Under the pieces are notes generated by a model. That model did not search any database. It saw nothing but the letters and a program-made list of their open reading frames with translations, and was not told the origin of the DNA. From assembly GCF_003018235.1 (NCBI RefSeq), contig NZ_CP027437.1: DNA of 64,000 nucleotides; one strand, written 5' to 3'. Positions 6,508 through 6,594 of the stretch are shown here, piece after piece. The translations under genes and the position numbers were made by a program. Position 1 is the stretch's first letter; every line of letters begins with the position of its first letter. The stretch is from Escherichia coli. Lineage in GTDB: Bacteria; Pseudomonadota; Gammaproteobacteria; Enterobacterales; Enterobacteriaceae.

Positions 6508-6526
6508 GTAAAAAAGTTAGAACGGC

Positions 6527-6558
6527 AACGCGTACCCTGGGTACGCGTTGTTTGTCTG
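6527..6558 (+). terminator. Stem-loop between pyrG and eno (partial terminator or processing site)
   Basis: aacgcgtac cctgg gtacgcgtt hairpin followed by gtttgtctgg; T-tract imperfect. Confidence 0.4.
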
Positions 6559-6594
6559 GAGTTTCAGTTTAACTAGTGACTTGAGGAAAACCTA

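Follow-up and report, generated by a model that had tools for sequence, protein, structure and literature searches.

Results

The pyrG-eno locus

The window, by which we mean the whole 64,000-nucleotide stretch of DNA that was analysed, is part of an Escherichia coli chromosome and carries mazG (3851-4642), pyrG (4870-6507) and eno (6595-7893) in this order on the + strand. The coding sequences of pyrG, which encodes CTP synthase, and of eno, which encodes enolase, are both supported by the list of open reading frames and by the RefSeq annotation of identical E. coli sequence. The 87-nt spacer between them (6508-6594, +), which corresponds to the published "eno 5' UTR (87 nucleotides)" (Lee 2019, PMC6872547), spans exactly the distance from the pyrG stop codon (TAA, 6505-6507) to the eno ATG (6595), as delimited in an earlier interpretation of these letters without database searches (the sequence-only reading). 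Of 5426 complete E. coli genomes, 5425 match a 301-nt query across the site, with annotated pyrG and eno at the match, and the spacer region of the window differs from that of MG1655 by one base, at 6522 (A here, G in MG1655). Downstream of eno lies its canonical terminator (7913-7942, +), with A5, a perfect 13-bp stem AAAAATGCCAGCC-TTCG-GGCTGGCATTTTT and T5; it is probably bidirectional.

Promoters of eno have been located inside pyrG (Olvera 2009, PMC2759082). Work with eno-cat fusions showed that eno transcripts mostly begin within pyrG and pass through the hairpin described below, and that deleting the pyrG segment from such a fusion lowers expression (Lee 2019, PMC6872547). RNA 3' ends have also been reported inside pyrG. 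The dominant ones, at MG1655 2909630 and 2909628 (Adams 2021), fall at about 4906-4908 of the window, 36-38 nt into the open reading frame, and are Rho-dependent and flagged 'uORF'; a further pyrG-internal 3' end was recorded at MG1655 2908331 (window position about 6205). Together, these ends point to premature termination early in pyrG. Elsewhere in the window, the sok antitoxin RNA (Rfam RF01794) has a match at 26366-26523 (+) with a score of 111 bits, where the gathering score is 59, which suggests a putative chromosomal locus of the hok/sok toxin-antitoxin type.

A stable hairpin follows the pyrG stop codon

The sequence-only reading had proposed a spacer stem-loop with the arms aacgcgtac and gtacgcgtt, and both arms were found, at 6527-6535 and 6541-6549 respectively. 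The full inverted repeat is longer: CAACGCGTACCC (6526-6537) and GGGTACGCGTTG (6539-6550) are perfectly complementary at 12 of 12 positions and form a 25-nt palindrome. In the RNA the stem consists of 11 Watson-Crick pairs, from C6526-G6550 to C6536-G6540, around the loop CUG (6537-6539, +), while two G·U pairs (6525/6551 and 6524/6552) lengthen its base to give a 13-bp core. Folding, the inverted repeat and covariation support both the 5' arm of this core, GGCAACGCGUACC (6524-6536, +), and the 3' arm, GGUACGCGUUGUU (6540-6552, +), whose last two U are those in the G·U pairs. The 43-nt core folds with -20.8 kcal/mol (z = -3.65) and the whole spacer with -27.9 kcal/mol (z = -3.07), and in either case none of 200 shuffles was as stable. 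When a 300-nt context was folded, the core pairs had probabilities of 0.985-1.0.

Below the core, the minimum free energy (MFE) structure of the spacer contains a possible lower helix in which UUAGA (6517-6521, +) pairs with UCUGG (6555-6559, +), with a pair probability of only 0.14-0.28 in the long context. The cells of this helix are 78% paired in Enterobacterales and show almost no covariation, because both sides of the lower helices are conserved in sequence. With two lower helices the stem reaches 18-22 bp in Enterobacteriaceae, and for most other members of that family the hairpin is extended in the MFE structure to about 22 bp, interrupted by two 2x2 internal loops.

The 64-kb window contains 4 perfect inverted repeats whose arms measure 11 nt or more, compared with 0.15 expected from dinucleotide shuffles, and the eno terminator is one of the three besides the spacer hairpin. 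Inverted repeats with perfect arms were also seen at 13476-13515 (16-bp arms, 8-nt loop; AGAAAGGTAACTTCCC-TCTCGCGG-GGGAAGTTACCTTTCT) and at 47604-47632 (11-bp arms, 7-nt loop; ATTCCCGATAG-CAAAAGA-CTATCGGGAAT). The spacer hairpin itself is found at one place per genome in 5425 of the 5426 complete E. coli genomes, and the window holds one match to the element when up to 3 mismatches are allowed; being present in one copy per genome, it is not a REP-type repeat. A gathering-level Rfam search of the whole window gave no match in the spacer, and a permissive search of 4600-8200 gave there only a chance-level match on the minus strand (E = 7.5). The 'pyrG motif' of the Breaker lab was set aside as a candidate, since the accessible part of its description presents a separate motif that is not tied to the pyrG-eno spacer.

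The stem is conserved as an RNA structure of the sense transcript

The comparative analysis covered 80 loci encoding close Eno relatives, with one genome per species, and the pyrG-eno spacer was cut out of each. In most Enterobacterales, Vibrionales and Aeromonadales this spacer is 62-94 nt long. A stable hairpin, defined as one of -12 kcal/mol or better that starts within 25 nt of the pyrG stop codon, was present in 63 of 73 gammaproteobacterial loci, at an offset of 5-25 nt. It was found in 33/39 Enterobacterales, 18/19 Vibrionales, 3/3 Aeromonadales and 8/10 Alteromonadales, and the loci that do not have the early hairpin mostly belong to AT-rich genomes (at least 2 of them symbionts by name) or are the four with spacer insertions of about 100 nt.

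The hairpin is maintained in position, and its stem sequence differs completely from genus to genus. Aligned over 23 Enterobacterales spacers, the stem has 96.4% of its cells paired, as compared to 80.4% in column shuffles. Both partners have changed in 8 of the 10 stem pairs, and compensatory cells number 38, where the shuffles give 9.9. Sliding the 3' partner by 1-3 columns reduced pairing to 29-53%. We also compared the two strands, with hairpin boundaries optimised separately for each: in 55 of 57 loci the best hairpin of the sense strand surpassed that of the antisense strand in stability. The stems often contain G·U pairs. The advantage of the sense fold over the antisense fold indicates that selection acts on RNA structure in the sense pyrG-eno transcript. 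Altogether, purifying selection maintains the stem as an RNA structure of the sense strand in several gammaproteobacterial orders. Within Escherichia the stem is invariant: the A/G polymorphism at 6522 lies outside it, and E. albertii carries T6538A, which places an A at the centre of the loop.

Several spacers depart from this general picture. Those with insertions of about 100 nt come from Mangrovibacter, Erwinia endophytica, Pantoea sp. IMH and Budvicia (L015:1314-1500, L016:1308-1500, L019:1327-1500 and L033:1342-1500); they are 159-193 nt long and fold strongly (-45 to -76 kcal/mol), with the strongest hairpin elsewhere, and in their first 70 nt the fold has no advantage over shuffles. 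Small mobile elements or repeats may account for the insertions. Within Escherichia, the A-tract is 2 nt shorter in one E. coli strain, and in a river isolate 8 nt are duplicated at the pyrG stop codon, both changes leaving the stem intact. In Pasteurellales, pyrG is not directly before eno, and was either not found within 1.5 kb or separated from it by a gap of 0.9-1.2 kb (loci of this type: L039, L042, L043, L046, L049, L056 and L079), so that the pyrG-eno context of the hairpin is not universal in Gammaproteobacteria.

On its 3' side the hairpin is followed by a leader block that is nearly invariant in the Enterobacterales alignment (6554-6594, +) and includes the Shine-Dalgarno sequence GAGGA (6583-6587). 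This leader, GTCTGGAGTTTYAGTTTAAC..TGAGGAAAACCTA, is almost unchanged across the families of the order; it carries the -27 and -18 RNA ends discussed below, the Shine-Dalgarno sequence and, spaced by about 27 nt, two GGA motifs (6558-6560 and 6585-6587). Vibrionaceae have a conserved leader of their own, TTTGACATTTATAT..GAGAGGAAAC.

A possible, at most weak, terminator in E. coli

The hairpin has the GC-rich stem and short loop of an intrinsic terminator (loop of 3, about -20 kcal/mol). The 'imperfect T-tract' seen in the sequence-only reading is indeed there, as TTTGTCTG (6551-6558, 5 T in 8), and in the RNA it is an interrupted U-tract, UUUGUCUG (6551-6558, +; 5 U in 8), which shares positions with the G·U pairs and with the lower helix. 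Intrinsic terminators typically carry an unbroken U-rich stretch of about 7-9 nt right behind the stem and give RNA 3' ends 7-9 nt beyond it. Three of its U are proximal to the stem, and two of these can be taken up by the G·U pairs. We scored terminators with a formula of the d'Aubenton-Carafa type and current energy parameters, and the E. coli hairpin with TTTGTCTG obtained a d of about 5, slightly positive and marginal. In Photobacterium, Aeromonas, Shewanella, Pseudoalteromonas and several Vibrio, the hairpin found at this position is followed by a clear T-tract and scores d = 10-38, and in the Vibrionales, Aeromonadales and Alteromonadales it has the look of a canonical terminator. Conversely, Yersinia, Hafnia, Edwardsiella, Providencia and Photorhabdus keep the hairpin with no U-tract after the core stem and with negative d; the extended hairpins of Yersinia and Serratia are followed by the tail GUUUUAGU.

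A scan with consensus promoters and terminators returned no promoter-like or terminator-like site in the spacer. The same scan missed the textbook terminator of eno, and its negative outcome was therefore given no weight. The Term-seq tables of Adams 2021, with 1175, 882 and 1053 curated dominant 3' ends in three conditions, list no 3' end at MG1655 29078xx-29080xx, which is weak evidence at the hairpin because they likewise list none for the eno terminator itself (29065xx-29067xx). No relevant 3' ends were present in the supplementary data of TERMITe or SMRT-Cappable-seq, and a literature search for Rend-seq 3'-end evidence at the site gave no result.

Published RNase III- and RNase G-dependent ends lie around the hairpin

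Published 5' ends of the eno leader lie around the hairpin. The end at -77 (U6518, +) and the major end at -27 (U6568, +) were mapped as enoP6 and enoP4-P5 respectively (Olvera 2009, PMC2759082), and both were shown to depend on RNase III by primer extension and S1 mapping (Lee 2019, PMC6872547). An RNase G-dependent end leaves an 18-nt leader (-18; Clarke 2014, PMC4191395) and converts to an inferred coordinate of 6577 (+). A further 5' end at -212, in line with transcripts that cross the hairpin, has been called promoter enoP7-P8 (Olvera 2009, PMC2759082), and an RNase E-dependent site was reported in the pyrG-eno intergenic region (Clarke 2014, PMC4191395). By RNA-seq, Romero 2014 identified pairs of RNase III sites and grouped eno with rpsO-pnp and adhE. 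We rejected a reading of the -27 and -77 ends as promoters: the table of Olvera 2009 gives 'no predictions' for them, our scan contained no promoter-like site, and the ends are RNase III-dependent.

The response to these enzymes has been studied by Lee 2019 (PMC6872547). The segment from -87 to +60 is enough for an eno-cat fusion to respond to RNase III as well as to RNase G, the -27 species accumulates when RNase G is missing (rng deletion), and it was proposed that translation rises once a 'large hairpin' upstream of the Shine-Dalgarno sequence has been removed. RNase III cleaved a model hairpin in vitro and RNase G cut only the RNase III products; the positions of the in vitro RNase III cuts differ from the in vivo ends, and only site 1 was reproduced, and that only when a cis-antisense RNA, which extends from eno +272 to pyrG +1419, was added. 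According to the same paper, sites 1 and 3 fit a 2-nt 3' overhang in an M-fold model.

In our most stable fold the 2-nt 3' overhang expected of RNase III cuts was not found: U6518 lies opposite G6558, and the partner end would then be expected at 6561, whereas the mapped one is at 6568. A fold with 6518 opposite 6565, which would explain the overhang, is possible and was discarded as 8 kcal/mol worse than the best one. The duplex of a typical RNase III substrate is about 20 bp long, or about two helical turns, and internal loops are allowed; the core stem here has 13 bp, and the lower helices that would bring it near that length combine low pair probability in E. coli with essentially no covariation. 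The mismatch between in vitro and in vivo sites raises the possibility that the in vivo substrate is a sense-antisense duplex and not the hairpin. The strong selection on the stem nevertheless argues that the hairpin matters and that a sense-antisense duplex is not the whole story; we infer that the hairpin itself would serve as an RNase III recognition element.

Discussion

A conserved stem-loop as the probable core of the eno-leader processing region

The pyrG-eno stem-loop is real, functional and already known. The sequence-only reading had offered two roles for it, a partial terminator or an RNase processing site. The second is borne out by the published RNase III and RNase G ends and, with RNase III-dependent ends flanking the hairpin, is for that reason not new; as to the first, the hairpin may terminate weakly at most, its U-tract being interrupted and its score marginal. 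By way of processing and differential decay, the element could plausibly set the pyrG:eno transcript ratio, as was further suggested. [quoted passage not shown] The structure, the sense-strand selection and the distribution come from the present analysis, while the RNase dependence of the flanking ends comes from the cited papers. Transcripts from the pyrG promoter, or from promoters inside pyrG, would run through the hairpin, with termination there at most weak in E. coli. RNase III-dependent cuts on either side (U6518 and U6568) would then separate the eno mRNA from the upstream RNA and by the same step take away the hairpin that immediately precedes the ribosome-binding site. This would yield the monophosphorylated -27 species, which would be translated and would also be a substrate of RNase G, whose cut would leave it with the 18-nt leader, inactivated.

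The main competing explanation for the selected role of the hairpin is a leaky intrinsic terminator or attenuator after pyrG, with the RNase ends being secondary. UUU directly after the GC-rich stem, the 5 U in 8 of UUUGUCUG, the slightly positive d, the clear T-tracts at the same position in the genera named above and the tail GUUUUAGU behind the extended stem of Yersinia and Serratia are all in line with it. Nevertheless, eno has its promoters inside pyrG and its expression needs read-through, two of the stem-adjacent U are engaged in G·U pairs, and five genera of Enterobacterales keep the hairpin with no U-tract behind the core stem; the missing Term-seq 3' end adds little, the eno terminator being missing as well. 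We regard termination as the principal function as unlikely, though still a serious candidate. The hairpin could instead act on stability, as a 3'-terminal barrier to 3' exonucleases for pyrG mRNA once a downstream cut has been made, and maybe also as a 5' stem-loop that shields the -77 eno species from 5'-end-dependent attack by RNase E/G. The ompA leader is such a 5' stabiliser with a base-paired 5' end, and U6518 is likewise base-paired in the MFE fold; a stable conserved hairpin immediately 3' of a stop codon and the RNase E site reported in the intergenic region (Clarke 2014, PMC4191395) would also suit a stabilising role. The cut at 6518 severs the hairpin from pyrG, however, the dominant eno species (-27) is devoid of it, and Term-seq, as weak evidence, has no hairpin-terminated 3' end, which makes this role improbable.

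Two further readings do not require an RNA structure with a local role. A perfect 25-nt palindrome in E. coli, together with the Cra-regulated promoter reported upstream of eno, could indicate an operator of a dimeric regulator, or a cruciform, at the level of DNA. What is conserved, however, is the pairing and not the half-site sequence, and the G·U pairs favour the sense RNA fold whereas pairing in DNA would give no strand asymmetry, so that we judge a DNA element very improbable. The palindrome could finally be due to chance, or be a dispersed repeat of the REP/ERIC type with no local function. Its intergenic location is the only point in favour; none of 200 shuffles folds as well, only 0.15 such repeats are expected per 64 kb, and the single copy per genome, the conserved position and the covarying stem pairs across orders refute this reading.

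Beyond the RNase III/RNase G pathway, the hairpin and the leader of about 40 nt could form a dedicated module for post-transcriptional control of enolase. Such a module may be a platform for a CsrA-type protein or may provide feedback from degradosome enolase, with the hairpin setting the geometry. The almost unchanged leader, its two GGA motifs and the retention of the hairpin in those Enterobacterales, too, whose core stem has no U-tract behind it would be compatible with it; a literature search for CsrA binding to the eno leader returned no direct evidence, and we consider this module a long shot.

Enolase is both a major glycolytic enzyme and a component of the degradosome, and its leader tunes it post-transcriptionally, with RNase III acting positively, RNase G negatively, and in response to oxygen (Lee 2019, PMC6872547). 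Since the hairpin is part of this known circuit, its identification brings no new biology. The modest addition made here is the comparative picture: the stem pairs covary, the sense fold outdoes the antisense fold, and the hairpin shifts by degrees from what looks like a canonical terminator in Vibrionales and Alteromonadales to a form whose U-tract is poor in Enterobacterales. These three features argue for a role of the hairpin itself and thereby bear on the mechanism of Lee 2019. The accessible parts of the published eno-leader work contain no account of covariation, strand asymmetry or distribution of the hairpin.

Comparison with known systems

The element is the same as the processing region of the E. 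coli eno 5' UTR (Kaga 2002; Ow, Perwez & Kushner 2003; Romero 2014; Clarke 2014; Lee 2019), and the published ends at -77, -27 and -18 of that leader, which correspond to 6518, 6568 and 6577 in the window, are arranged around the hairpin. The rpsO-pnp hairpin and the adhE leader likewise have paired RNase III-dependent cuts upstream of a coding sequence, and in these systems the RNase III cuts prime the downstream mRNA for inactivation, which is carried out by RNase G in adhE and eno. The hairpins of pnp and adhE are long duplexes. In contrast, the well-supported stem of pyrG-eno is only 13 bp, and Lee 2019 (PMC6872547) invoke an antisense RNA. The putative pyrG terminator of Vibrionales, Aeromonadales and Alteromonadales shares with the E. 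coli element its position, 5-20 nt after the stop codon, and the same type of GC-rich hairpin, and the E. coli hairpin probably descended from an intrinsic terminator after pyrG. The two differ in what follows the stem: the tracts of those three orders are uninterrupted (TTTTTT, TTTTATTT) and give d = 10-38, whereas E. coli has TTTGTCTG with a d of about 5.
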